From: a virus
Strand: one strand, 5' to 3'
Virus genome (UHGV): UHGV-0147886
DNA length: 12,817 bases
This document shows, one piece after another, positions 519 through 12,749 of the stretch; the stretch's first letter is position 1, and the number at the start of each line of letters is the position of its first letter. The notes beneath the pieces are model-generated. The model saw nothing but the letters and a program-made list of their open reading frames with translations, was not told where the DNA came from and did no database searches. The translations under genes and the position numbers were made by a program.

Positions 519-809
519 TTACCGCCGTAAGTGCTCCGGCTTCCTCCACTGGTAAGTATTTTTCGCGCTCTCCCTCCGTTGTTGAGAACGGCGACGGTAT
601 GCCAGCAACTCAAGAACTCTGGTTCGTATGTTGCGCATATCCACGCCGTTAAGCTCAATACCGTCACGGCGCATTACCTCAGCCACCACACGCGCGTAAT
701 TTTCGGCTATCACGCTGTCCGGCTGTGTAGCCTGTTCGTCAGGCTGACGACTGATTCCGGTAATGCGGCGAATTATTTTTAGTAGATCAGTTTCAGTCAT
801 TCTCGTCAT
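519..809 (-). CDS. Hypothetical 96-aa protein, translationally coupled to terL
   Basis: ATG at 809-807 overlaps the terL stop (ATGA overlap at 806-809). Last ORF of the head/packaging operon. No recognisable motif. Confidence 0.6.
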   Translation of the reverse strand: MTRMTETDLLKIIRRITGISRQPDEQATQPDSVIAENYARVVAEVMRRDGIELNGVDMRNIRTRVLELLAYRRRSQQRRESAKNTYQWRKPEHLRR

Positions 810-2455
810 ACCCCATCAAATGCCGCAAGTCGCTCTTTCTGGCTGTCGCTCATATCAAATGCAAATTCCTCATGCTCAGCCTGGAATGTGCCAAACGCCA
901 TCAGCGCCGCAACGCTCGGGTCTATCTTATTGGATGATTTTTTCTTGTTCGGCTTGATATTGGCGTTCGCGTCACTCTGCATCACAACATTACTCATTGA
1001 CCAGGCCAGCACCGGATCACCACGATGAACAATCACCTTCCGGTTAACAAAAACTTCGAACGATTTCGCCGCCGGACTAAAACGAAGGTACGTTTGCGGG
1101 AACGGCTCCACCTCAAATCCCGCTCCCTGTAGCTGCGTCCTCAGGTGCGTGGCGTTCCATGTATCGAAACCCACCAGCCTGATATTGAAATTCTCTGCAT
1201 CCGCCATGATGTCATCACGGATACGGTCATAATCAATGCAGTCACCCGGTGTTGTGCGTATCCAGCCCGCCTTTACCCACTGGCGATAGATGGCGCGGTT
1301 TTTATTGGCGGGGTTCTGTAGCTGAAATTCCGGTAGATAGTGACGTGAAACCAGCATAATCTTTTTACCGACCGGGAAGGCATAGCACACGCTGGAAATA
1401 TCGCTGGTTGATGATAAGTCCAGCCCCGCATAGCACTCCTGCCCGTATAAATCCGCCTCAGCGAACGTTCCGGCGCACTCCGCCCATGCACCGTTACCCA
1501 TCCACGGCGTAGCCCCCTGACACCAGATATTGAATCGCTTGGTGAGCATTTCCACCCACTGCGACGGAATACCCCGCGCTTTCTGGATGGTTGAGGCCAG
1601 TTTTTCACGATCGATATTGGGATTCGCCTTTATCCACATCGCCGGATCGTCAACCTCGCTTTCATCATCCAGCTCGTAAATCAGTACGAACATGGATTCG
1701 TTCACCTCTTCACCATCCAGTATCTGGCAGCAATAGTCGTAGTGTTGTTTACAGGCTGAAACAACGTTGCTCCCCGATGTGGTGATGGCAAATAACAGCC
1801 CCTCCGGACGCGCCCCCATCCCCAGTTCAAGTGCGGAATAAACCCCGTTGTCTGGGTGCAGGTGATATTCATCCACAATGGCAAGACTCGGGTTTGTCCC
1901 CTCAATGGTTGCCGCTTTTGCTGCCAGTGGCTTTAACAGGCTGTTGGTTTTCGGGTGTATCACCTTGTGCGCCTGAATATTTACCCGCTTTCGTAACGGT
2001 CGGGATAAAAGGCACATCTGACGCGCATCATCAAACACGATCCGCGCCTGATCACGACTCACGGCGGCGGTGTAAATATCCTGCTGCCCGTTTTCCATAA
2101 CCAGAAACCAGTTAGCCAGGATAGCGGCGACCGTGGATTTGGCATTTTTTCGCGGTACTTCAATGAATGCGCTGGTGTATTTGCGCCGTCCGGTGGCCTT
2201 AACCTTAAATCCCAGGATGCAGGCAAAGGCGAACTGCTGCCACGGCTCAAGTTCAATGGGGCTACCGCGCATTGCGCCTTTTACGTGCGGGCACACCCGG
2301 GAAAAGGCAATAAACCGCTCCACGACCTCCGGATCGAACGTGTAAAGGGAGTTTTCAAGGTCAGAAAAATACCGTTTAACAGCCTGTTTCAGTCGTTTAC
2401 AGGCCGTAATTTTGCCGTTTTTTACGCCTTCTGCGTACTCATGCCAGGCGGTCAA
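806..2455 (-). CDS. terL: Phage terminase large subunit (TerL)
   Basis: 549-aa ORF with Walker A-like VPRKNAKST and Walker B-like LAIVDEYH in the N-terminal half and a C-terminal nuclease-like region. Directly downstream of terS with 17-nt overlap. First codon at 2455 is TTG, preceded by AGAGGA; no in-frame ATG nearby, so the exact start is uncertain. Confidence 0.9.
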   Translation of the reverse strand: MTAWHEYAEGVKNGKITACKRLKQAVKRYFSDLENSLYTFDPEVVERFIAFSRVCPHVKGAMRGSPIELEPWQQFAFACILGFKVKATGRRKYTSAFIEVPRKNAKSTVAAILANWFLVMENGQQDIYTAAVSRDQARIVFDDARQMCLLSRPLRKRVNIQAHKVIHPKTNSLLKPLAAKAATIEGTNPSLAIVDEYHLHPDNGVYSALELGMGARPEGLLFAITTSGSNVVSACKQHYDYCCQILDGEEVNESMFVLIYELDDESEVDDPAMWIKANPNIDREKLASTIQKARGIPSQWVEMLTKRFNIWCQGATPWMGNGAWAECAGTFAEADLYGQECYAGLDLSSTSDISSVCYAFPVGKKIMLVSRHYLPEFQLQNPANKNRAIYRQWVKAGWIRTTPGDCIDYDRIRDDIMADAENFNIRLVGFDTWNATHLRTQLQGAGFEVEPFPQTYLRFSPAAKSFEVFVNRKVIVHRGDPVLAWSMSNVVMQSDANANIKPNKKKSSNKIDPSVAALMAFGTFQAEHEEFAFDMSDSQKERLAAFDGV

Positions 2456-2795
2456 GTTCGTCCTCTTCCTCTGTTTCCGGTGGATTTCTGCGACGGCTTA
2501 CCGGGTCAAAACCCAGCAAAGAAGCCATTTTGATCATTATTCTTTCTGCGTCAGCCTTTGCGCTCAGTGCGGGGTTTCTGCTCTCGCTGCCCTGACTGTT
2601 AACAATGCTGAACCCGCGCGTCGCAAGGTCTTCGACGGCTTTGCGGTATATAGAGTAGTTAACGCAATACAGTTCCAGATTGCTCCAGTCGGCGGGGGTA
2701 AGGTCTTCCCGCCCGGAAAGCTGGCGCGATTTTTCCTTCCACTGCCTGACCGCGATTTCATCCAGGTAAGCGGGGGCTTTTGGTGGTCTTGCCAT
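2439..2795 (-). CDS. terS: Phage terminase small subunit, P27-family-like
   Basis: 119 aa from ATG 2795-2793 (MARPPKAPAYLDE...). Size and sequence pattern match P27-family TerS and it sits immediately 5' of terL. The longer ORF to 2936 is read-through of the G-rich intergenic region and is rejected. Confidence 0.8.
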   Translation of the reverse strand: MARPPKAPAYLDEIAVRQWKEKSRQLSGREDLTPADWSNLELYCVNYSIYRKAVEDLATRGFSIVNSQGSESRNPALSAKADAERIMIKMASLLGFDPVSRRRNPPETEEEDELDRLA

Positions 2796-2811
2796 GTTCT
2801 TTTTTCGCCCA

Positions 2812-2840
2812 ATTATTTTCAAAAAAATTACCGTGCACAA
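2812..2840 (-). promoter_or_regulatory. Candidate sigma70-like promoter for terS-terL
   Basis: Minus strand reads TTGTGC (2840-2835), a 17-nt spacer, then AATAAT (2817-2812), about 20 nt upstream of the terS ATG. Hexamers read by eye, not scored. Confidence 0.35.
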
Positions 2841-2846
2841 AAATTT

Positions 2847-2906
2847 GAGGGGGCGGTCGGTGTCCGGCAGGGACGGTTTCGTCCTGAAAACCACCCCCAC
2901 CCCCTC
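2847..2906. other. Nested G/C-tract inverted repeat in the HNH-terS gap: candidate cos/packaging site or intrinsic terminator
   Basis: GAGGGGG (2847-2853) and CCCCCTC (2900-2906) are reverse complements and bracket an inner hairpin (2868-2886, loop GTTT). On the minus strand the structure is followed by AAATTTTT and further T runs. Confidence 0.35.
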
Positions 2907-3083
2907 TGACGGCCTCACCAGCGATTGCGAAAACATTCCATGACCTCGCGGTCACGGTCGGTTAATCGCTTCGCTGTGGTGCGTTTTGTGCGCCCTGTCC
3001 TGTTGGCTTTGTGCTCTGTCTCCTGTGTCTTCCATGTGTCACGCTGCCTTATCAGTCCACGTATCAGCCTGGTTTGCTCCTGT

Positions 3084-3524
3084 TCAGTCATCATCGCCAT
3101 ACATCCAGTCGTTACGGTGTGCCGCCCGTTCTTCCTGCTCGCGATACATGCCCGCTTTACGGTTTGTTTTCGTGGCTGGATCTTCCCGTGTCGTCTTACG
3201 GTTGTGGCACGTCTGGCACAATGCCTGGTGATTCCACTCAGGCCAGAAGAGAACATCACCGCCGCCATTGATGGGAATGATGTGATCCACCACAAGAGCT
3301 GGCGTATAAATCCCCTTAGCCAGACAACGCACGCATAACGGGTTTTTGCTCAGGTACAGGGCGCGGTATTTGTCCCACTGTCGGGAATACCCGCGCGCGC
3401 GGCGGTGTCCCCGTCTGGCATCCTCTGCACGCCATGCAGCCCGCCTGTGCTCTTCACACTTGCCGGACTTCACGCGCTTATTACAGCCAGGCTCAGTGCA
3501 TCGCCTTAATGGTTGCCACGGCAT
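3084..3524 (-). CDS. HNH endonuclease (phage packaging-associated)
   Basis: 146 aa. N-terminal Cys cluster CTEPGCNKRVKSGKCEEH and HNH core ...VVDHIIPINGGGD...WNHQALCQTCHNRK. Start ATG shares one base with the connector stop (TGATG). Sits next to terS, as is typical for HK97-like cos-type packaging modules. Confidence 0.85.
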   Translation of the reverse strand: MPWQPLRRCTEPGCNKRVKSGKCEEHRRAAWRAEDARRGHRRARGYSRQWDKYRALYLSKNPLCVRCLAKGIYTPALVVDHIIPINGGGDVLFWPEWNHQALCQTCHNRKTTREDPATKTNRKAGMYREQEERAAHRNDWMYGDDD

Positions 3525-3826
3525 CAGTACACCCCTACGTCACGATAAACTGACCAGAGCGCAGAAATAGCCATAGGCAGTTCCGAGTGCTCCACTGGTG
3601 AAACCGCTTCCCGGTTCTCGTACAGGAAAGCGATGTACATCAGGCAACCAACACGCATTGCCGGGGTAAATTCCAGCCCGTCTTCAAAACGTTTCCCGAT
3701 ATGCTTCTGGCAGGCTTCCAGCGCCGCATCGGTATACATTTTCAGAAGTTCGCCTTCACCGGATAAATCATCATCAAGTCGAAGATGTGCCCTGACTTCA
3801 TCAGGTGTAATTCTGGCTTCACTCAT
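3524..3826 (-). CDS. gp6-like head-tail connector/adaptor protein
   Basis: 100 aa from ATG 3826-3824 with RBS AGGGAG 5 nt upstream. N-terminus ...ITPDEVRAHLRLDDDLSGEGELL... matches the characteristic start of gp6-like head-tail connector proteins. Overlaps the portal stop by 8 nt. Confidence 0.7.
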   Translation of the reverse strand: MSEARITPDEVRAHLRLDDDLSGEGELLKMYTDAALEACQKHIGKRFEDGLEFTPAMRVGCLMYIAFLYENREAVSPVEHSELPMAISALWSVYRDVGVY

Positions 3827-5033
3827 CTTTTCTCCCTTTAATTTCCACAGTCTGTTTCCATGCCTGGCTGAACTCATCACCACCTTCACGCGGCGGCATA
3901 CCCTCACGCTCACGGGCTTCGTTCGGATTCATGATCCCGTTCTTAATCCCTTTCTCATACGTGGCATAACGTTCGGTGGGTGTGGCGCGTAATAAATCGG
4001 CTGAATCAAACTCAACCAGATAACGGGTACCAGGTACGGGAGAAGCCACCAGCAAAGCGGCCTTGATTTGCTGTTCGAAGTTCGCCAGCCACGGGCGCAT
4101 TGTCATGGTCAGAAACGCGCGGCTTGCCTCGCTGAAATTGCTGTAGGTGCTGTTGCTGTATTCCTGCAGAAAAATAGGCGATACGTTGAACATGCGGGCG
4201 ATGTCTTCAATGGAGAAGCGACGGGAGGCCAGCCATTCCGCATCCTGGTTACTCATTCCCAGTTGCCTGTAATCCATGCCCCCTTCAAGGATTGGCGTTT
4301 TTCCGGCATTTTTCGCCCCCTTGTAGCGTTCCAGAGCATCCAATGCCTGTTTACCTTTCACGCCGTCCAGCCATTCGCCTGACGTGATAATCCCTGCCGC
4401 CATCATGCCATCTTTCATAATGCTGGCTCCGTGACGCTGTTGAGCAAGGCCAAGCCCCAGCGCCTCACGGCAAATCGTGACGGGGGAACGCCCCAGAAAG
4501 CCATCATCCGAGGCATAGCGGAGATGCAAAACTTCTTCCTGTAAATACGTGCGCACCGTTCCTGTACAGGGTTCGGTGATGGTATAGCGGTATTTGTGTG
4601 CGCCTGTGCGTTCCGGTACAACACACCCCGGCGCATAAGGATGAAGTGATTTTGGCTGCCCGTCCTGCCCCCACTCAATAACCGCATAGGCGTTACCGTT
4701 CAGCAGGCAGTGACGCATCATTGTGCGTTTAAACTGGTAAGGTGTCTGGCACGAATTAGGCTGCTCATTCAGCAGAATATCTACCGGGTGACTGTCCAGC
4801 CATTCCCGCGCCTCCCTGCCCTTGTCATTACGTACCAGATACAGATAACACGGCATCGTGGCCACCGCCTCAGCGATGACAGAAACCGCATTCATCACTG
4901 CAGGCAATGATTCAGCCGTCCCGGCAGAAACATATTCTCCGGATCCGGTATTCGGTACGCCGGACAGCGCCAGAAAATCATCAATGGACAGGTTACGCTG
5001 CTCGCTTTTTTTACGACTAAAAGGCCACCACAT
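3819..5033 (-). CDS. Phage portal protein, HK97 family-like
   Basis: About 404 aa from ATG 5033-5031, which lies 1 nt after the protease stop (TGATATG). Size and sequence pattern, including a conserved C-terminal region (...FSIEDIARMFNVSPIFL...NPNEAREREGMPP...), fit HK97-type portals. The upstream extension to 5123 starts at TTG with no usable RBS. Confidence 0.85.
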   Translation of the reverse strand: MWWPFSRKKSEQRNLSIDDFLALSGVPNTGSGEYVSAGTAESLPAVMNAVSVIAEAVATMPCYLYLVRNDKGREAREWLDSHPVDILLNEQPNSCQTPYQFKRTMMRHCLLNGNAYAVIEWGQDGQPKSLHPYAPGCVVPERTGAHKYRYTITEPCTGTVRTYLQEEVLHLRYASDDGFLGRSPVTICREALGLGLAQQRHGASIMKDGMMAAGIITSGEWLDGVKGKQALDALERYKGAKNAGKTPILEGGMDYRQLGMSNQDAEWLASRRFSIEDIARMFNVSPIFLQEYSNSTYSNFSEASRAFLTMTMRPWLANFEQQIKAALLVASPVPGTRYLVEFDSADLLRATPTERYATYEKGIKNGIMNPNEAREREGMPPREGGDEFSQAWKQTVEIKGRKDE

Positions 5034-5034
5034 A

Positions 5035-5595
5035 TCACAACCCCGCCAGCTCAGACCAGCGATGACGATTATTTCCTGTCGGACGTAATTCAGGGTGCTG
5101 TGCAAACAACGAACGGTGGGCAATCTCCACGCCAGATTCTGGATAAGCAGGCATCGACGTTATTGTGATTTCACGGAGTTCAGCGGCGGTTACGGTACGC
5201 AGATACGGTTTTTGCGCGATACTCCACTCCTCGCATAATGCGCGAAAACCAAAGCTCATTCCTGTAATGTCGCCACGCTCCACCAGCGTAAGCACATCTT
5301 TTCCAAGCTGGGTATCCGGCGGTGTCAGTTCAAAACGTAACCCGGTGTTATCCTCAGTCAGTACCAGAGTGCCGGATTTGGTGCGCCCCAGCAGTTGGGT
5401 ATAGTCATGCTCATACAGGCAGCGCACATCATTACCCGTCGCCAGATAGTCAGCAAAAGCCCCCGGCGTGAACTGTTCGCGGAATTCGTCCCAGATAATT
5501 TCTGAAAGGCTGTTCCAGCGAACGGCATACCCCACCAGCTTTTTATTGCTGGCGGTCAGTTCAGATGTGCGGATTTCAAAATCGGTGTTTTTCAT
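5035..5595 (-). CDS. HK97-family prohead protease
   Basis: 186 aa with the prohead-protease pattern (...GYAVRWN...FTPGAF...CLYEHD...LGRT...GDITGMSFGF). ATG 5595-5593 with GGAG 7 nt upstream. Confidence 0.85.
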   Translation of the reverse strand: MKNTDFEIRTSELTASNKKLVGYAVRWNSLSEIIWDEFREQFTPGAFADYLATGNDVRCLYEHDYTQLLGRTKSGTLVLTEDNTGLRFELTPPDTQLGKDVLTLVERGDITGMSFGFRALCEEWSIAQKPYLRTVTAAELREITITSMPAYPESGVEIAHRSLFAQHPELRPTGNNRHRWSELAGL

Positions 5596-5606
5596 CGGTG
5601 TACTCC

Positions 5607-5637
5607 ATAAAGCTGAAAAAGGAGGCCGCAGCCTCCT
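5607..5637 (-). terminator. Intrinsic terminator-like hairpin between major capsid and protease genes
   Basis: On the minus strand, AGGAGGC-TGCG-GCCTCCT (7-bp GC-rich stem, 5620-5637) is followed directly by TTTTTCAGCTTT. Confidence 0.55.
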
Positions 5638-5649
5638 CCTTACTCATGA

Positions 5650-6819
5650 CTAGCCAGCTTTCATTTCCAGAATTTTGATGGCGTTTGAATCCACCACACC
5701 ACCGCCCAGATATTTATCCGTGTGGACCTTGTAGAATCCGGGTTCAGTAATGTTGTCCGGTCGGGTGCGAATCCCTGTTACATGATCAACGATGAAATAA
5801 CCACGACTGAAATCGCCAACCGCCAGCGGTGCTTTTCCTGCGCCGATGTCCGGCATGGACTCCAGGCAGTAAACAGGACGACCAAGCAACATATCCGGCG
5901 CACCGTCTTTAAGGCTGTCGCGCCAGATATAATCGCCGTTCTCATTTTTCAGCTTCTGTAGTGTCCCTGCCGTACCCGAGTTCATCACCCAGACGGCATT
6001 TTTGCGGTATTTCGCTTTCAGCTTGTAGAGAATGTCGATCAGTTCGTCCGCTGTAATGGCGGTTCCACTTGCCGCTACCATTTTTTCAATGGTGCCAAAA
6101 GCGCGGGTTTTGTCACTGGTCGCCGCACGGGTGTAAGCCATGAAGCCTTTCGGCTTGCCGTTACCGTCGCCATTAACAAAATCATCCTCTTCGGTGCTGG
6201 CGAACGTGTCGGCAATTTCGGAGGATAACCAGCCCAGAATATCCACCTCTGAAAAATCAAGGATTTCCTGCGTGGTTTTCGGGTAGGCGTAGATCGGATT
6301 CAGCTTGATGGTTACGCGTTCAATTTTCGGGGTGTTGGTTTCACTGCGTGCGCTGCCTTCTGTGCCTCGTCCTACAGTTGCGCCGCCAGTGGAAACCAGT
6401 TTCTGAAACTCATTTGATTTTGCAGTCTTCACGGTCGCGATCACGCGCATAACACTGTCATCCTGTAGCTGGCGCATGACTTCGCGATCGAGCTCAGGAA
6501 TTACGGTATATCCGCCATCCCTGCCGCTGTCAGTGCTGGTGGACAGTGATCGCACATCTCCGGTTACGATGTAGTTACGCAATTCATCAGATGATAATTT
6601 CTGGATGCCCGTTCCTGGCTTGCTGCGTTCTTCATCAGCCACAGACTCGAGGCGGGAAATTTCTGTGTCGAGGGAGTCGGCTTTTGCACGCAGTTCATCA
6701 AACTGTTTGCCCTCGTCATCGTTCAGGCTGCGGTTTTCACTGTCGGCTTTTTCCAGCAGGGATCGCATCTGGTTTTTCAGGGCGGTTTTTTGCTGGCGGA
6801 GTTCGATTAATTTCTTCAT
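5650..6819 (-). CDS. Major capsid protein, HK97 fold, with N-terminal scaffold/delta-like coiled-coil region
   Basis: 389 aa. The first ~100 aa are charged and coiled-coil-like (MKKLIELRQQKTALKNQMRSLLEKADSENRSL...), followed by an MCP-like body (...NGDGNGKPKGF...). First gene of the head operon, after a long untranslated leader. Confidence 0.9.
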   Translation of the reverse strand: MKKLIELRQQKTALKNQMRSLLEKADSENRSLNDDEGKQFDELRAKADSLDTEISRLESVADEERSKPGTGIQKLSSDELRNYIVTGDVRSLSTSTDSGRDGGYTVIPELDREVMRQLQDDSVMRVIATVKTAKSNEFQKLVSTGGATVGRGTEGSARSETNTPKIERVTIKLNPIYAYPKTTQEILDFSEVDILGWLSSEIADTFASTEEDDFVNGDGNGKPKGFMAYTRAATSDKTRAFGTIEKMVAASGTAITADELIDILYKLKAKYRKNAVWVMNSGTAGTLQKLKNENGDYIWRDSLKDGAPDMLLGRPVYCLESMPDIGAGKAPLAVGDFSRGYFIVDHVTGIRTRPDNITEPGFYKVHTDKYLGGGVVDSNAIKILEMKAG

Positions 6820-7359: not shown

Positions 7360-7782
7360 CTAAAAGGGTATGTTATCCCCGTATGGATCATCATTCCCCG
7401 CCTGTTGCTTAGCCCTATTTAGAGCGTCAGTAGCCTGACCCTGCTGGCCTTTTTTGCCACCAGGTCGCGCCGTTCTGGCACTGATTACGCTGTCTGCGAT
7501 AACCTGCCAGCCCTGCCGCGTTTCCCCGTTCTGGCCTGTCCACTGGCTTACCTGCATGTTACCCGCCACGCTCACCAGCTCGCCTTTGTGGTGTTTTGCC
7601 AGTGCGTCGGCCTGTCTGCCAAACGCCAGGACGGATAACCACATCGTCGCCTGTCCGTCATCTGCCTGATTGCACGGCAGGTGGACCGCCATGCTTGCCA
7701 TAGCCATTTGTGTGCCCTTGCTGGTGGTCTTTAACTGCGGGTCAGCCACCAGCCGCCCGTAAGCTGCTATCTGTGCTGTCAT
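7360..7782 (-). CDS. ssb: Single-stranded DNA-binding protein (SSB)
   Basis: 140 aa. OB-fold SSB pattern (...WLSVLAFGRQADALAKHHKGELVSVAGNMQVSQWTGQNGETRQGWQVIADSV...) and an acidic C-terminal tail ending DDPYGDNIPF, like the conserved bacterial SSB tip ending DIPF. Confidence 0.8.
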   Translation of the reverse strand: MTAQIAAYGRLVADPQLKTTSKGTQMAMASMAVHLPCNQADDGQATMWLSVLAFGRQADALAKHHKGELVSVAGNMQVSQWTGQNGETRQGWQVIADSVISARTARPGGKKGQQGQATDALNRAKQQAGNDDPYGDNIPF

Positions 7783-7993: not shown

Positions 7994-10117
7994 TTAATCG
8001 TCTGCCTCAGGCTGGAACATCATCACGTAAAAAACATGCTGCTTACCCCCAATTTTGCCGAGCGCCTTTTTCTTGTAACGGCGATCGTTACCCGCTTCCA
8101 GCATTCCGGCAGCACTCAACGCGCGGGCAAAGTGAGACGGATTAAATCCCTGTGCTATCTCACCCTCAAACACATGAGGAAACGTGTAAAAACGGAACTC
8201 ATCATCTTCATTTCTGATACTCCCCTTTCTGTATCCGGCAAGGTCTTTAATCGGTAAATCACGCTCATCACTGTTTGGGTAAGGAAGGTATCGACTGAAC
8301 CCGAACGACGACAAAAACGCCTCAGCCTGTTCAACCATCTGTTTAAATTCCCTGTTACCCGTGCCGAACTCCTTCACCCAGGCATTAAAGTTATGCTGTA
8401 TTGCGTCCCGGCATTCCTGCGCGGCCCAGCCAGTTACATGACCGGAAAGCACAAGCGCAGCCTCCAGTATGGCGAAACGTTCCCCCACGCGGTGGACCTG
8501 CTCGCCGTAGCTCTCCGGTATCAGGTTGTGCCACCGTTCGCGGCATTCCCTTACCGTGTCCTTTGCCTCCTGCTGGTGGTCTGCCAGCCATTTAACCCAC
8601 TCACGACCCGCCGCCCCGTGATTTGCAGTCCAGGCATCCTTTAACGCGTCTGCGTGCGCCTTTCCGGTGCTGTATTCGTGAAATTGCGTGGCTTTCTCCA
8701 TCGGTACGTTAAGCAGACGGACAAGCTGGCCTGCTTTGACTTTTACCCCCTCACTTTTGAGGAATGTCTCAACATCCATTTCTCCGGTGCTGATTGCCAC
8801 CGTGCGCCAGTGTTTGATCTCCCTGTTGCCGCCGTCCTTCGCCCCCTGTAATTTCCCCGAACCGTTAAACAGCGTATAGGCTGACGTGGACACTTCCCGC
8901 GCGTTTCCGGCCTGGCCTATTTCATCCAGGGGTAACAGCCCGTCGTTGTGTGCTTCGGCCTCGTTGGCGATACCTAACGCCGTTCCGTACCAGGTCAGCC
9001 GTTGCGCGTCCGGCTCTCCCCATAAACTTGAAGCGATGTTCTGCGTGGTGGTTTTCCCTGCCGATGACTGTTCGAAAAGATGTACCCCGAAGCCGTCAGC
9101 ACCAACAAGGCCAATCAAAGGTGCTGCCAGTGACGTGGCAACACCCAGCATCATGGACGGATTGCCACCAGCCAGCCGCGCCACGCTGTCGCGCCAGCCC
9201 TCCGCCGTACCCGCAACCGAATAGCCATTAACAGCGGCACTTTTTCCGGTAAACAGGATCGGTTTTTCAGAATCACCAATGATTGAACCGTCCGGCATGA
9301 TGTACGCGCCAAAATGCCAGCCCGTTGTTGTGCTTAACTGCCATTCCTCATGGCTTCCGCTTAACTGCATCCAGTCAGCCAGGATAGCCCTGTATTTGCC
9401 ATTTGTTGTCACATTCAGCCCGTGATCTTTAAGCAACCGCCAGCCGTCACGGTCGCCAATGCCACCACACGGGATCGCCATTGTGATGACTTCATGGTTT
9501 GCTAATTTTTTCCAGCGCATCACGCGGTAATGCTCTTTACCGATCGTCCCCGTTCCCAGTAGTTCAAGCGGAGAACATAACCACGTCTCAGGCCGGATAA
9601 TTTCGCCTGACTGCTTATCCACTTTGGGCGTTACCCAGAAAACACCATCGACGCGACTTTCAACGCGGGGCTTTAATTCATCATCCTGATAGCATGGCTC
9701 TTTTTTCTTTACAGGCAGTTCAACTACCTTTTTCTTTTCCGCCTGCTCTGCCCGTTCACGTTCCAGATATTCGCGCCAGTTCTCCCGTTTCTGGCTGTGC
9801 ATTCCTTCAGGATAATAATCAGCATCCCTGACACCTGCCGCTGCCAGTTTCTGCCCGATGGTATTAACAAGCCCCGGACGCAATAACCCCGCCTGATAGA
9901 GACGCACGCGATAGCGTCCGTCCGGTACGATTTGCAGGTTGTCCAGTTCGGCAAGTTGTTGCTCTCCAAGCCAGACAGGAGGCACGTTATCGCCAGCCAG
10001 TCGCCCGTCCTGTTCCTGCCACTGCTTCGCATGTGCCCACGCATCACTACCCGCAAAAATGATGACTTCCGTCATTTTGTCACGCGGCTGGTGTTTTAAA
10101 TTTGGCGCTTTTTTCAT
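7994..10117 (-). CDS. Replication initiator, P-loop NTPase of the primase-helicase type (SF3/DUF927-like)
   Basis: About 707 aa from ATG 10117-10115 (RBS GGAGAG; ATGA overlap with the upstream ORF; alternative GTG at 10132). Central Walker A ...EQSSAGKTTT... and Walker B ...LLPLDEIG.... Followed directly by the iteron cluster. A primase function for the N-terminal domain is inferred from context only. Confidence 0.75.
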   Translation of the reverse strand: MKKAPNLKHQPRDKMTEVIIFAGSDAWAHAKQWQEQDGRLAGDNVPPVWLGEQQLAELDNLQIVPDGRYRVRLYQAGLLRPGLVNTIGQKLAAAGVRDADYYPEGMHSQKRENWREYLERERAEQAEKKKVVELPVKKKEPCYQDDELKPRVESRVDGVFWVTPKVDKQSGEIIRPETWLCSPLELLGTGTIGKEHYRVMRWKKLANHEVITMAIPCGGIGDRDGWRLLKDHGLNVTTNGKYRAILADWMQLSGSHEEWQLSTTTGWHFGAYIMPDGSIIGDSEKPILFTGKSAAVNGYSVAGTAEGWRDSVARLAGGNPSMMLGVATSLAAPLIGLVGADGFGVHLFEQSSAGKTTTQNIASSLWGEPDAQRLTWYGTALGIANEAEAHNDGLLPLDEIGQAGNAREVSTSAYTLFNGSGKLQGAKDGGNREIKHWRTVAISTGEMDVETFLKSEGVKVKAGQLVRLLNVPMEKATQFHEYSTGKAHADALKDAWTANHGAAGREWVKWLADHQQEAKDTVRECRERWHNLIPESYGEQVHRVGERFAILEAALVLSGHVTGWAAQECRDAIQHNFNAWVKEFGTGNREFKQMVEQAEAFLSSFGFSRYLPYPNSDERDLPIKDLAGYRKGSIRNEDDEFRFYTFPHVFEGEIAQGFNPSHFARALSAAGMLEAGNDRRYKKKALGKIGGKQHVFYVMMFQPEADD

Positions 10118-10413
10118 TTCTGCTCTCTCCACGCGGCAATCATGTTTTTCAGTTCCTGTAGTTTTTTATCCACATCCACACGTGACACATGGTTATTTCT
10201 GGAAAGCGGGATTTCCCGCCGGAATCTGCAAATAAAGATCTCCACGTTCAGCGAACTATGAAATGAATAGCCATCACGAATAAAATAAACACGGTCAAAC
10301 ATCAGTTCTTTTACCGTTACTCTGTTACCGTTCTTATCCAGATAAATAGCGCCGGGGATAATTTTGGGGTGTGCATAACCGCTGGCAGTCAAGCCAGATA
10401 AATATGTTCTCAT
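10114..10413 (-). CDS. Hypothetical 99-aa protein
   Basis: ATG 10413-10411. Stop overlaps the replication protein start (ATGA). Part of a tightly coupled operon. No recognisable motif. Confidence 0.55.
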   Translation of the reverse strand: MRTYLSGLTASGYAHPKIIPGAIYLDKNGNRVTVKELMFDRVYFIRDGYSFHSSLNVEIFICRFRREIPLSRNNHVSRVDVDKKLQELKNMIAAWREQK

Positions 10414-10419
10414 GATTAT

Positions 10420-10740
10420 TTATCCCCGATTTGAATCAGTATTCGCTTTCTTTATGGCATTTAATGCATCTGCGGCATTTTCAATGGTGCACCGTAACGA
10501 AATATCAAACTGCCCAAGCATTGCCAGTAACAAACCGATATTACCCATATCAATGCGCATAGCCTTTTCGTCATATTCCTCATTTTCTGACGCATGCCAC
10601 ATCAGGCTACCAATTGACGCAACAGCCATTGATATATTGTCAGTAGCCCCATCCGCAGCGGAATAAACCTTTTTAGCAATATCATGCTCACAGTTAAAAT
10701 GCGGATTAATCAGGTACTGGTAATTTGACATATCAGGCAT
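10420..10740 (-). CDS. Hypothetical 106-aa protein
   Basis: ATG 10740-10738 with RBS AGGGGG. Overlaps the upstream ORF stop by 8 nt. No recognisable motif. Confidence 0.55.
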   Translation of the reverse strand: MPDMSNYQYLINPHFNCEHDIAKKVYSAADGATDNISMAVASIGSLMWHASENEEYDEKAMRIDMGNIGLLLAMLGQFDISLRCTIENAADALNAIKKANTDSNRG

Positions 10741-10936
10741 GGCACACCCCCTGACGAATACGGGCGGCGAATACCATCACGCAGCCAGCCGGGGATTGCT
10801 GGCGTGCTTCCTGTTCGCTGGTGGCCACGATGTGAATCACGCGCGGTTGTGCGGTGCTCAGGGCGATAAAACGCCAGATGTATTTATTCAGGTTGTGCGA
10901 GTCCCGCCCTTGCGGGTGTATGGTATGATTTCTCAT
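10733..10936 (-). CDS. Hypothetical 67-aa protein, first gene of the replication operon (possibly Icd-like; weak recollection only)
   Basis: ATG 10936-10934 with GAGG 5 nt upstream. The longer ORF to 11026 starts at TTG inside the promoter region. The motif ...WRFIALSTAQPRVIHIVATSEQEARQQ... resembles small Icd-like proteins that sit upstream of primases in enterobacterial islands. Not verified. Confidence 0.45.
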   Translation of the reverse strand: MRNHTIHPQGRDSHNLNKYIWRFIALSTAQPRVIHIVATSEQEARQQSPAGCVMVFAARIRQGVCHA

Positions 10937-11034
10937 AACTGCCTCGATACTCTCGTTATCGTTGGTGGTTAGACGCCCCGTATGTGTTTCCGGCACTGCG
11001 GGGCGTTGCTCTTTGTATTTCAACAATCCTTTCG

Positions 11035-11112
11035 GTGTGTTTCATGTTATGAGCGCATGAAACACACGTCAAGGCTTTTTGTATTTCTTTTTTTGTGTAT
11101 ACTGAAACACAC
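11035..11112. promoter_or_regulatory. Divergent control region: palindromic operator overlapping a sigma70-like promoter for the replication operon
   Basis: Perfect inverted repeat GTGTGTTTCATG (11035-11046), 9-nt spacer, CATGAAACACAC (11056-11067). A third half-site-like ACTGAAACACAC at 11101-11112. Minus-strand -35 TTGACG (11072-11067), 17-nt spacer, -10 TAACAT (11049-11044), so the palindrome covers the spacer and -10. A TATACT hexamer at 11098-11103 may serve the plus-strand gene. Confidence 0.55.
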
Positions 11113-11133
11113 CGATGATTAGGAGTTTCAGAA

Positions 11134-11439
11134 ATGGCAACGGCTAACAAAAACGCAAAATCACAACTGACAACTGTCAGAGTCCCACTAGATGTTATGC
11201 AAGGGATGGAATCCGTTAAGCTGGACGGCGAAAGCAATGCCGGATTTATCGTAACCGCCATGCGCGGAGAAATAGCCCGCCGCCAAGCAGAAGGCAGCGG
11301 AGAAAATCCCCTTGTGTCGTCACTGGATGCCCTGGCTAAGGTCGAACAAATCGGCATCAAAGCAGCGGAAGAAATCGGGCAGCTTGTCACCGTTGCACGC
11401 GAAGAACTCCAGCGTCGCAAGACCAAAGAACCAGAGTAA
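11134..11439 (+). CDS. Putative small DNA-binding regulator (possible ribbon-helix-helix), divergent from the replication operon
   Basis: 101 aa. ATG 11134 with RBS AGGAG 8 nt upstream. N-terminal strand-helix-helix-like segment (...QLTTVRVPLDVMQGMESVKL...GFIVTAMRGEIARRQ...). Regulator role inferred from position next to the operator. Confidence 0.6.
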   Translation: MATANKNAKSQLTTVRVPLDVMQGMESVKLDGESNAGFIVTAMRGEIARRQAEGSGENPLVSSLDALAKVEQIGIKAAEEIGQLVTVAREELQRRKTKEPE

Positions 11440-11496
11440 TCACCATCAGCGCCTTGGTGTAAGGTATTACGGCGCATTGCTATGCAGGACAACACA

Positions 11497-11670
11497 ATGA
11501 CCGATAAAGAATTGACCAAAACATTATCACCGGCACGGAAAAGACGGCGCAGAAAGATAGAGCATGAATCAGAAAGATTCGCGCCATGTGCTTTTGCTCT
11601 TGAGAAATTCCTTAAAGAGCACAGGAAAAAGCTCTCGTTGCAAACCTTGGAACGAACCGAATCTGACTGA
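11497..11670 (+). CDS. Hypothetical small basic protein (57 aa)
   Basis: ATG 11497 with AGGA 7 nt upstream (alternative ATG at 11482). Highly basic stretch ARKRRRRK. Followed by a strong terminator. Coding status uncertain. Confidence 0.35.
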   Translation: MTDKELTKTLSPARKRRRRKIEHESERFAPCAFALEKFLKEHRKKLSLQTLERTESD

Positions 11671-11734
11671 TCAAATTGCCCACCAGCCAGCAAATCGCTA
11701 TGATGTTCGAGCTTATGTTTAGTGTTTTCCCATT

Positions 11735-11763
11735 GGCGACCGCCCCCGGTCGCCTTTGTTTTA
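11735..11763 (+). terminator. Rho-independent terminator for the plus-strand unit
   Basis: GGCGACCG-CCCC-CGGTCGCC (8-bp stem, 4-nt loop, 11735-11754) followed by TTTGTTTTAT. On the minus strand the hairpin has no T tract after it. Confidence 0.7.
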
Positions 11764-12444
11764 TGCGCGATCATGTGCCGCCTCCCACTCATATTTATCG
11801 AAATCAATCTGCCCCATCGCATCTACCAGCCGTACCGCCGGACGCAGAACTTTGAGTTCCTTCTTGCGGATATTCATTCCATTACTGCCCTGTGAGCCAT
11901 GAAACTGCTTAGAATGCTTGTCCGCACGAGTCACGGCGTTTTGCGCATCAGTAACCGGCATGGCGATCAGTTCTTCGAGCGACGGCAGATCCACATGATG
12001 GAAAGTGACAAACTCCGGGCAACGGAAATAAGTTTTCACGAGCTGGCGCTGTACCTGCCAGGCCAAATCATCGTTAAACGGTTTGGTCAGCAGCAGATAG
12101 CCTGATTCCGTAATCAGTGTTACGCGGCCACGTATCGGACTGTTCATTTTTTTGCCAGGGCGTTTAATGCCCCTGTCTAAATATCCAGCCCCTCCCCATT
12201 CGACCTCTGACGCGCCGACAATAAAAAAGTCCTCACCATCAATGAAGCGAGTGCGATTACGCTGAAAAGTCTTTTTAGCCGTGTCTTTAGGTCGCTGGTG
12301 CGCGGTATCAATCATTGCGAACGTCACCACGCGTTGCCCGTGAAATTCGACGGCAGGAAGCTGTTTAAGCTGCACGCTAATATCGCTTTTACTGGCAACA
12401 GGGTGAGCGAATCCCTGCCCGTTAAGGGCATTAATATTTTTCAT
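11761..12444 (-). CDS. ORF6N-domain (KilA-N-like) phage regulatory protein
   Basis: 227 aa. N-terminal region ...GQRVVTFAMIDTAHQRPKDTAKKTFQRNRTRFIDGEDFF...LITESGYLLLTKPFNDDLAWQVQRQLVKTYF matches the ORF6N pattern (RG..VMLD.DLA..Y...TK.LN.AVKRN..RFPEDFMF...AFTE.GV.ML...). ATG 12444-12442. Confidence 0.65.
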   Translation of the reverse strand: MKNINALNGQGFAHPVASKSDISVQLKQLPAVEFHGQRVVTFAMIDTAHQRPKDTAKKTFQRNRTRFIDGEDFFIVGASEVEWGGAGYLDRGIKRPGKKMNSPIRGRVTLITESGYLLLTKPFNDDLAWQVQRQLVKTYFRCPEFVTFHHVDLPSLEELIAMPVTDAQNAVTRADKHSKQFHGSQGSNGMNIRKKELKVLRPAVRLVDAMGQIDFDKYEWEAAHDRA

Positions 12445-12464: not shown

Positions 12465-12749
12465 TTAAGCAGATTTGCGGCTGTACGGGTTATTGACGTT
12501 TTCCACGGCAGGCGGATTACGAACCCACCAGAGCACATCCGAAAGAAGCCAGGCACAGCTGTTGCGGCCAAAGTGACAGCGCGGCGGGAAGCGCCCCTGC
12601 TGTTCCATCTTCCAGCGGCTCGAACGAGAAAGACTGGTGATCTCGCTGCATTCATCTTCGCGGATTCGGCGATCGAACTTGAAGCCGTACTCCTCCAGAA
12701 TGGTGCGGCGTTGTTCAGGATTTGGCGGGGTAAAGGTGATAATTTGCAT
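12465..12749 (-). CDS. alpA: AlpA-family phage transcriptional regulator
   Basis: 94 aa from ATG 12749-12747 with RBS GGAGG. Motif ...ITSLSRSSRWKMEQQGRFPPRCHFGRNSCAWLLSDVLWWV... fits the AlpA helix-turn-helix pattern (S-R-[AS]-[ST]-x-[YW] ... FP ... G..S.AW...[DE]...W). The extension to 12809 is rejected. Confidence 0.75.
   Translation of the reverse strand: MQIITFTPPNPEQRRTILEEYGFKFDRRIREDECSEITSLSRSSRWKMEQQGRFPPRCHFGRNSCAWLLSDVLWWVRNPPAVENVNNPYSRKSA

Follow-up and report, generated by a model that had tools for sequence, protein, structure and literature searches.

Two two-fold operators probably occupy the 78 bp between positions 11035 and 11112 of the virus genome UHGV-0147886, where they would be bound by the product of a divergently transcribed gene, a 101-residue protein of the YlcI/YnfO family with a predicted ribbon-helix-helix (RHH) domain. 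Judged from comparisons of related loci, this protein would repress the leftward promoter (PL) of a replication operon and autoregulate the rightward promoter (PR) of its own gene. The window, by which we mean the whole 12,817-nt stretch of DNA analyzed, is an Escherichia coli-type capsid-forming phage-inducible chromosomal island (cf-PICI), an identity assigned because of its open reading frame (ORF) layout, family scans, and the annotation of its closest E. coli relatives, which are 96–98% identical across 94–100% of its length. The sequence-only reading of this DNA had proposed an operator lying over the promoter of the replication operon, and that layout is now backed by invariant repeat arms around a drifting spacer, by promoter hexamers that hold their positions, and by co-variation of the repeats with the neighboring DNA-binding protein. 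The elements of the control region, with the left operator called OL and the right operator OR, are the following.

11035–11046: left arm of OL, with conserved core GTGTGTTTCA at 11035–11044; overlaps the PL −10 and the predicted PL start.
11049–11044, minus strand: PL −10 hexamer TAACAT, 17 bp from the −35, with a predicted start near 11037.
11056–11067: right arm of OL, with conserved core TGAAACACAC at 11058–11067; fills the PL spacer and abuts the −35.
11072–11067, minus strand: PL −35 hexamer TTGACG.
11079–11088: left arm of OR, degenerate, TTGTATTTCT (TTGTATTTC at 11079–11087), with 7 of 8 matches to the core TGTGTTTC.
11098–11103, plus strand: PR −10 hexamer TATACT, read from the sequence, in the promoter of the gene for the 101-residue protein; the −35 is weak.
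11101–11112: right arm of OR, with core TGAAACACAC at 11103–11112; shares the end of the PR −10 and takes in the predicted PR start, near 11110.
11134–11439, plus strand: gene for the 101-residue YlcI/YnfO-family protein, the proposed operator-binding repressor.

The OL palindrome reads exactly as first described, as a perfect inverted repeat at 11035–11067 with fully complementary 12-bp arms, GTGTGTTTCATG (11035–11046) and CATGAAACACAC (11056–11067), on either side of the 9-nt spacer TTATGAGCG. It is the longest perfect inverted repeat (spacer of at most 20 nt) in the window, and a 12-bp inverted repeat was reached in only 1 of 200 random first-order Markov sequences with the composition of the window. 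A TTGACG-N17-TAACAT promoter had been placed on the minus strand beneath the palindrome, and a consensus scan called the same promoter independently, with 9 of 12 matches. This promoter, PL, which we grade as strong, reads leftward into the icd-like/primase operon. An operator is expected to overlap the −35, the spacer, the −10, or the start of a sigma-70 promoter, and the arms of OL do so. The 10-mer core TGAAACACAC is found in three mismatch-free copies within the 78 bp and nowhere else in the window.

A further half-site near the divergent gene had been read as standing alone. The site itself is present: ACTGAAACACAC (11101–11112) matches the 12-mer at 10 of 12 positions and contains the 10-mer core TGAAACACAC exactly, and with its flank, as TGAAACACACCGA (11103–11115), it is perfectly complementary to TCGGTGTGTTTCA (11032–11044). 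Its isolation, however, does not hold. Relatives carry copies of the repeat at four fixed positions, at about −98, −74, −53, and −29 from the start codon of the gene for the 101-residue protein, and the −53 copy is degenerate in the window; the third half-site is therefore the right, and stronger, arm of a second, imperfect operator, OR, at 11079–11112 (TTGTATTTC...GAAACACAC). The arms of OR bracket the PR −10 (TATACT, 11098–11103), and PL and PR stand back to back.

Conservation was followed in class A, a set of 18 distinct upstream sequences from E. coli, Serratia, Xenorhabdus, and Photorhabdus. Across this set, little or no variation is seen in the arms, both −10 boxes, the PL −35, or the ribosome-binding site, whereas the OL cores are separated by 13 nt that change freely. 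Constant arms around a drifting spacer are what a protein-binding site would be expected to show. The conserved part of each arm among orthologues is about 9–10 bp (GTGTGTTTC(A)), the inner ATG/CAT of the 12-bp arms not being kept, and the 8-mer TGTGTTTC is invariant in the left arm of OL in all 18 sequences. At OR, the PR −10 is invariant as TATA(C/A)T, and the left arm, a direct repeat, is constant as TGTATTTC in 18 of 18 (alignment columns shift with the length of a T-run); in class E, this degenerate arm is replaced by a complete copy of that class's core. A degenerate copy of the core, TTGTATTTCA, also lies at 11013–11022, 22 bp to the left of OL and within the transcribed leader; its TGTAT part is kept in class A, and it is a possible auxiliary site. 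Elsewhere in the class-A loci (528 kb), the 8-mer core turns up only 9 times where chance would give about 16, and the regulon is therefore local; a wider regulon inside the element was considered and rejected on the same count.

Comparison of all fetched loci (13 from a scan of genome contigs, with class diversity filled in by exact-protein look-ups and a scan of viral contigs) extends this picture beyond class A. Thirteen variants of the predicted strand of the 101-residue protein (residues 12–18) are found, each with its own repeat core at the same positions. The pairings, strand first, include the following.

LTTVRVP and LFTVRVP: core GTGTGTTTC.
SLTARIP: core GTGTAAG.
QISIRIP: core TGTGATTC.
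QLNARFP: core TGGTATTCA.
QINARFP: core TGGGATTCA.
LKNIRIP and VKNVRIP: core GGTGTGTATTT.
IKNVRVP: core GGTGTGCAT.
MKNIRFP: variants of the core GGTGT(A/G).
TVAARVP: core GGTGTTAAACAC.
ALKARVP: core GGTGTGGCCCAC.

The promoter keeps its place while the cores change. A TTGACN-type −35 is held in position in 12 of 13 listed repeat classes (the row for locus L012 is mis-anchored), and a TAnnnT −10 lies about 17–18 bp from it in nearly all classes (several rows read one base offset). In classes A, B, D, and E, the arms change together. A GGTGT/ACACC-like end of the core is common to all classes, and Ser10, Gln11, and Arg16 are kept in the protein, a pattern in keeping with a model of shared contacts supplemented by class-specific ones. 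A conserved site, drifting neighbors, and co-variation with the putative binding protein, as an operator would show, are all found here.

The strongest indication of which protein reads the repeats comes from natural swaps. The 101-residue protein, AlpA, the ORF6N protein, and a helper-phage protein had all been put forward as candidate binders; the first is now favored, and AlpA and the ORF6N protein are excluded as determinants of specificity. E. coli KSC9 (locus L002) matches the window at 96.7% identity as far as 11003 and at 97.1% from 11401 onward, the stretch in between being unrelated, and the segment replaced (11004–11400) corresponds exactly to the operators plus codons 1–89 of the gene for the 101-residue protein. 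AlpA, the ORF6N protein, and the primase of KSC9 are 100% identical to those of the window and the Icd-like protein is 94% identical, yet its repeats are different (GGTGTTAAACAC twice plus GTGTTGAACAC), as is the N-terminal strand of its YlcI/YnfO-family protein (TVAARVP, compared with LTTVRVP in the window). The reverse situation is seen in two other loci, L001 and L031, in which the control region is identical and the 101-residue protein is 99–100% identical to that of the window, but AlpA is just 47–49% and the Icd-like protein 50–100% identical (tblastn), the ORF6N gene is absent, and the primase is a different one. In a further locus, L032, the Icd-like protein is kept at 90% identity alongside an unrelated small YlcI-type RHH protein and GGTACGTACC palindromes.

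The same association was seen on a larger scale in IMG/VR, where a scan with the exact arms returned 47 loci. A gene of the LTTVRVP type follows the palindrome in 46 of them, the last being cut by the end of its contig, and among these viral-contig loci the exact palindrome was never found apart from the gene (with that one locus ending at a contig edge). Across the 47, identity to the window ranges from 29 to 60% for AlpA and from 49 to 100% for the Icd-like protein. Specificity does not follow the AlpA allele, with identical AlpA beside different repeats in KSC9 and divergent AlpA beside identical repeats elsewhere, and the swaps also show that it is not set by the Icd-like protein and contradict the primase and the 57-residue ORF downstream as determinants. 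The gene for the 101-residue protein is the only one with a sequence that tracks the repeats. Because the repeats change with the N-terminal region of this protein and not with AlpA, the ORF6N protein, the Icd-like protein, or the primase, they are very probably its binding site. The operators and the N-terminal part of the gene appear to behave as a swappable specificity ("immunity") cassette of about 400 bp, flanked by a conserved leader hairpin on one side and the conserved 3′ end of the gene on the other.

The properties of the protein are consistent with this assignment. It matches the NCBIfam YlcI/YnfO model (NF041551) over residues 9–50 with 63.2 bits against a cut-off of 30, an identical protein is annotated as YlcI/YnfO family in RefSeq, and some database entries for its homologues are named "Arc-like DNA binding domain." The N-terminal ~55 residues are predicted to form an RHH domain of the Arc/CopG type: the modeled fold contains the strand-helix-helix of about 45 residues that defines RHH proteins, and its best structural matches are the RHH antitoxins CopA_SO, TacA, and MazE9. 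Sequence profiles do not recover the fold, with no Pfam family matched by the full protein at E ≤ 0.01 or by residues 1–58 at E ≤ 10, and a search of the PDB by sequence found no relative. A helix-hairpin-helix match to Hef (residues 45–86, E = 0.005, 20 bits) was judged spurious because AlphaFold gives a single long helix at these residues. Alignment of 22 homologues shows conservation over the C-terminal two thirds, and the class differences fall in residues 8–32, the predicted strand and first helix, amid which Ser10, Arg16, and Pro18 are invariant; the class-variable residues co-vary with the repeat core. The long C-terminal helix probably joins dimers into higher oligomers, to judge from the predicted structure. 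A short form of about 59 residues, without the long helix, is present in KSC9 and in the island EcCICFT073, and the long form constitutes a small group, 1.84 billion proteins yielding 74 representatives at 50% identity. Among 50,697 phage records, tblastn found no homologue of the 101-residue protein, and blastn against phages gave a single weak match, of 75 nt, to an induced element of 16.5 kb; neither the protein nor the site thus shows any sign of being carried by phages.

We propose that an RHH dimer would sit on each ~10-bp core, with the centers of adjacent cores 23–24 bp apart, or about two helical turns, and that the C-terminal helix would couple the dimers. Occupancy of OL would block RNA polymerase at PL and keep the icd/primase/SSB operon silent in the resting island, and repression of PL would probably silence the downstream packaging genes as well. 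At higher concentrations of the protein, OR, one arm of which is weak in class A, would also be bound, shutting PR and giving negative autoregulation. Binding, the sign of regulation, and the means by which AlpA or a helper phage overcomes repression are steps that we infer.

The relation of this module to AlpA bears on how much control it could exert. AlpA is an activator induced by helper phages, and its overexpression alone leads to excision and replication of EcCICFT073 (PMC6092414). Uncontrolled replication of such islands harms the cell, and the founding paper on Gram-negative phage-inducible chromosomal islands (PICIs) termed the existence of a repressor in them "unclear" (PMC6092414). 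EcCICFT073 (L081, NC_004431.1 1380242–1381052) carries the same module between alpA and its replication genes: a gene for a 59-residue YlcI/YnfO-family protein (C_RS30120) is divergent from an Icd-like gene (C_RS30125), and two GGTGTGGCCCAC repeats, which constitute a repeat class of their own (H), lie over a TTGACG promoter. The genes for the 57-residue, 59-residue, and Icd-like proteins of this island have late-assigned RefSeq tags (C_RS30800, C_RS30120, and C_RS30125).

Several observations weigh against the proposed repressor or limit its reach. Because AlpA alone induces an island that bears the module, any repression must be open to bypass without a helper protein, and the 101-residue protein is therefore neither the sole nor the top-level switch. 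The description of the palindrome as the main on/off switch of the element is accordingly not supported as worded, AlpA being the experimentally shown master activator of this family. The sign of regulation is read only from the position of the sites. PR was missed by the promoter scan, and its −35 is poor. The repeats over PL are direct, not inverted, in classes C, F, G, and H, so that stoichiometry and geometry are not uniform. Finally, co-variation alone leaves room for an unseen determinant within the ~400-bp cassette; the sole other ORF of at least 50 codons with comparable overlap is a 288-residue reverse-strand frame (10956–11822), which is annotated in no related record.

One possibility for the bypass is read-through from alpA, across the RHH gene in antisense, into the operon. 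This route agrees with the gene orientation, and the only strong intervening terminator (11735–11754) acts in the opposite direction. Against it stand weaker terminator-like hairpins on the minus strand within the RHH gene, at 11301–11276 and 11180–11167, and hairpins antisense to this gene might limit read-through from alpA. Terminator-like motifs are frequent in this part of the window, with 6 in 10600–11600 and 0.9 expected. An anti-repressor route through ORF6N/Bro proteins is not general, because many islands with the same control region have no such gene.

Among other explanations, the one that survives best keeps the RHH protein on these sites and changes its task, making it a Cro- or Str-like regulator of induction, an activator, or a copy-number or partition-type RHH protein like CopG, omega, or ParG. 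We consider this unlikely. The same co-variation would apply to it, being silent on timing and sign, the mixed direct and inverted arrays resemble the heptad arrays of omega-type proteins, and the sufficiency of AlpA for induction of EcCICFT073 also speaks for it. The sites, however, are inside core elements of both promoters, which is usual for repression and not for activation; the PL spacer is a normal 17 bp, making remodeling of the MerR type needless; and the gene is equipped with a promoter and a terminator of its own and is oriented away from the operon that is induced, as would suit expression in the resting state.

It is very unlikely that the gene forms a toxin-antitoxin-like addiction pair with the 57-residue ORF that follows it, with the repeats serving only for autoregulation and their overlap with PL being incidental. 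The resemblance of the N-terminal domain to the antitoxins CopA_SO, TacA, and MazE9 would suit such a pair, as would the presence of a small ORF next in the same transcription unit, ending at the terminator. A type II system nonetheless demands an obligate adjacent toxin gene, and none is seen here: the 57-residue ORF has no toxin or other informative family match, it is missing from many loci with an identical control region, and the KSC9 copy is 95% identical despite a different operator and RHH protein. Moreover, the strongest and only perfect operator lies on PL and not on the promoter of the RHH gene itself.

Binding of the palindrome by a helper-phage or host protein, with the neighboring gene a mere hitchhiker in a recombination cassette, is slightly harder still to credit. 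Helper phages are known to trigger these islands through some factor, and linkage within a 400-bp cassette is no proof of interaction. Thirteen repeat classes, however, would call for as many partners, no homologue turned up by tblastn in the phage records searched, the exact palindrome was never seen without the adjacent gene in the viral contigs scanned, and the 101-residue protein is itself predicted to be a sequence-specific DNA binder with its variable residues in the predicted recognition strand.

Recognition of the repeats by AlpA, the ORF6N protein, the Icd-like protein, or the primase (as origin iterons) is highly improbable. PICI genes are known to be activated by AlpA, PHROGs labels the families that match the Icd-like protein as transcriptional repressors, and iterons are common near replication genes, but KSC9 combines different repeats with identical AlpA, ORF6N, and primase and a 94% identical Icd-like protein. 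Conversely, identical repeats occur with AlpA at 29–60% identity, with Icd-like proteins at 49–100%, with no ORF6N gene, and with primases of the D5_N/DUF5906 or DUF927 type. A nucleic-acid hairpin (cruciform, terminator, or RNA element) in place of a protein site is barely credible, for although the joint arm changes of classes A, B, D, and E would also be expected of a hairpin, the repeats at these positions are direct in classes C, F, G, and H, the predicted PL start inside the left arm would keep the stem out of the PL transcript, further copies of the same core are found at OR, and no Rfam family, C4/isrK-type immunity RNAs included, matched in a scan of the whole window at E ≤ 1.

An RNA structure is indicated for the leader that follows PL, outside the operators. 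The leader RNA (10937–11037, minus strand) contains a conserved nested stem-loop followed by the invariant UCUAACCA, and a second hairpin spans the icd ribosome-binding region. Compensatory changes are seen in 8 of 12 predicted pairs across 19 diverse loci; the stem-loop has no Rfam family match. In locus L027, the conserved leader hairpin is present twice. A fourth copy of the core TGTGTTTC, at 10983–10990, was considered as an operator and rejected: it lies in the hairpin loop, and a GTGTT-like loop is kept in other operator classes. The remaining features of the window, including this stem-loop, are these.

About 800–6800, minus strand: terminase, HNH, connector, portal, protease, and major capsid genes.
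7360–7782, minus strand: SSB gene.
7994–10132, minus strand: DUF927 primase-helicase gene.
10733–10936, minus strand: Icd-like gene, which opens the leftward operon under PL.
10973–11006, minus strand: conserved stem-loop of the PL leader RNA (stem 10973–10980/10999–11006); the left recombination boundary of the cassette, not an operator.
11497–11670, plus strand: 57-residue ORF, co-oriented with the gene for the 101-residue protein and not always present.
11735–11754, plus strand: intrinsic terminator of the rightward unit of the gene for the 101-residue protein, GGCGACCG-CCCC-CGGTCGCC followed by TTTGTTTT.
11761–12444, minus strand: ORF6N anti-repressor-like gene (PHROG "anti-repressor").
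12465–12749, minus strand: alpA.

After the Icd-like gene, the leftward operon continues with a 106-residue ORF, a DUF4222 gene, the DUF927 primase-helicase gene, and the SSB gene. The PHROGs families matching the Icd-like protein (10733–10936) carry the label "transcriptional repressor," and the NCBIfam label is cell-division-inhibitor-like; some related islands have two Icd-like genes, including one in E. coli Nissle. The 57-residue ORF, which belongs to a PHROG of unknown function, is annotated in L001 and CFT073 and missing at many loci with the same operator. The terminator at 11735–11754 has no U-tract for the opposite direction, and an equivalent hairpin is also present in CFT073. In strain KSC9, hpt and gcd flank the island, and the integrase gene lies directly beyond alpA. 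At the window's left end, in a non-coding stretch beyond the terminase end of the island, a 45-nt direct repeat (1–45 and 435–479, 98% identical) has in each copy a perfect 22-bp palindrome, CGAGTTGCAGATCTGCAACTCG (16–37 and 450–471). These repeats have no Rfam match, the left end giving only noise at E ≤ 10, and could be attachment, packaging, or host repeats.

Parts of the control module match in 1,754 of 5,426 complete E. coli genomes, or about one third, and most of it in 366. We found no published description of the module in literature that excludes most papers from subscription journals. The mechanism would be of a familiar kind; the interest lies in a concrete candidate for a repressor of Gram-negative PICIs, on which work has so far been framed around AlpA as activator, and in specificity classes that are discrete and swappable. 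The candidate and its operators are present in the model island EcCICFT073. More tentatively, and with some doubt, YlcI/YnfO-type RHH proteins may be the missing master repressor of Gram-negative PICIs and cf-PICIs, EcCICFT073 included, carried on a ~400-bp swappable cassette that would let satellites in one cell be silenced independently, with AlpA or a helper factor overriding the repressor or shutting it off. The discrete classes offer a simple typing scheme and may account for the coexistence of several related satellites in a single genome. PICIs are also being engineered as delivery and diagnostic vehicles (PMC10460865), for which compact, orthogonal repressor-operator pairs controlling replication would be practical.

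Among known systems, the 101-residue protein is a YlcI/YnfO member by the curated model and an RHH protein at the level of predicted fold, and it is not in the Stl/Rpr or Arc sequence families. It shares the N-terminal domain family NF041551 with the E. coli K-12 proteins YlcI (DLP12) and YnfO (Qin), which differ in being short and uncharacterized and in lying by the terminase/cos region of defective lambdoid prophages. YlcI of K-12 (64 residues; L082, NC_000913.3 580251–581379) is divergent from nohD, a homologue of the terminase small subunit, across a 390-bp gap. The position of the gene is that of the master repressors of Gram-positive PICIs, Stl, of the Staphylococcus aureus pathogenicity islands (SaPIs), and Rpr (PMC6092414), namely divergent from the replication operon with the sites in the intergenic region: here the gene at 11134–11439 (plus strand) faces away from an operon starting at 10936 (minus strand). 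The presumed role, to silence the satellite given the harm done by uncontrolled replication, is shared as well. Those regulators, however, have a helix-turn-helix (HTH) fold, in contrast to the RHH fold predicted here, and no HTH family matched the 101-residue protein. Two further differences are that int and alpA are not co-oriented with the candidate repressor gene here and that AlpA alone suffices for induction in EcCICFT073.

The immunity regions of lambdoid phages are mosaics of repressor and operator cassettes. As in those regions, the recognition part and the operators are exchanged together here between near-identical elements, giving discrete specificity classes, although the exchanged segment is just ~400 bp, the protein is an RHH and not an HTH protein, and the elements are satellites and not phages. 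Short repeats in arrays, whether direct or inverted, are read by the omega repressor of Inc18 plasmids and by other RHH regulators. A unit of ~8–10 bp in either orientation, in arrays of three to five copies across promoters, is likewise found here; unlike the units of omega, these are about two turns apart rather than contiguous, and no link to partition is indicated.

By analogy, the functionally closest parallel is the control of divergent promoters by Arc and Mnt in the immI region of phage P22. Differences from that system are evident: no sequence relationship to the 101-residue protein is detectable (no Pfam Arc match), the half-site centers here are ~23–24 bp apart and not about one helical turn, one protein apparently serves both operators, and the controlled operon contains an Icd-like gene and satellite replication genes rather than an anti-repressor. 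Arc and Mnt are nevertheless small RHH proteins that, like the proposed repressor, act on symmetric operators inside the core elements of back-to-back divergent promoters, and Mnt has a C-terminal helical oligomerization region such as is predicted for the 101-residue protein. Both repress the lytic-side operon and autoregulate, which is the combination that we propose for OL and OR.

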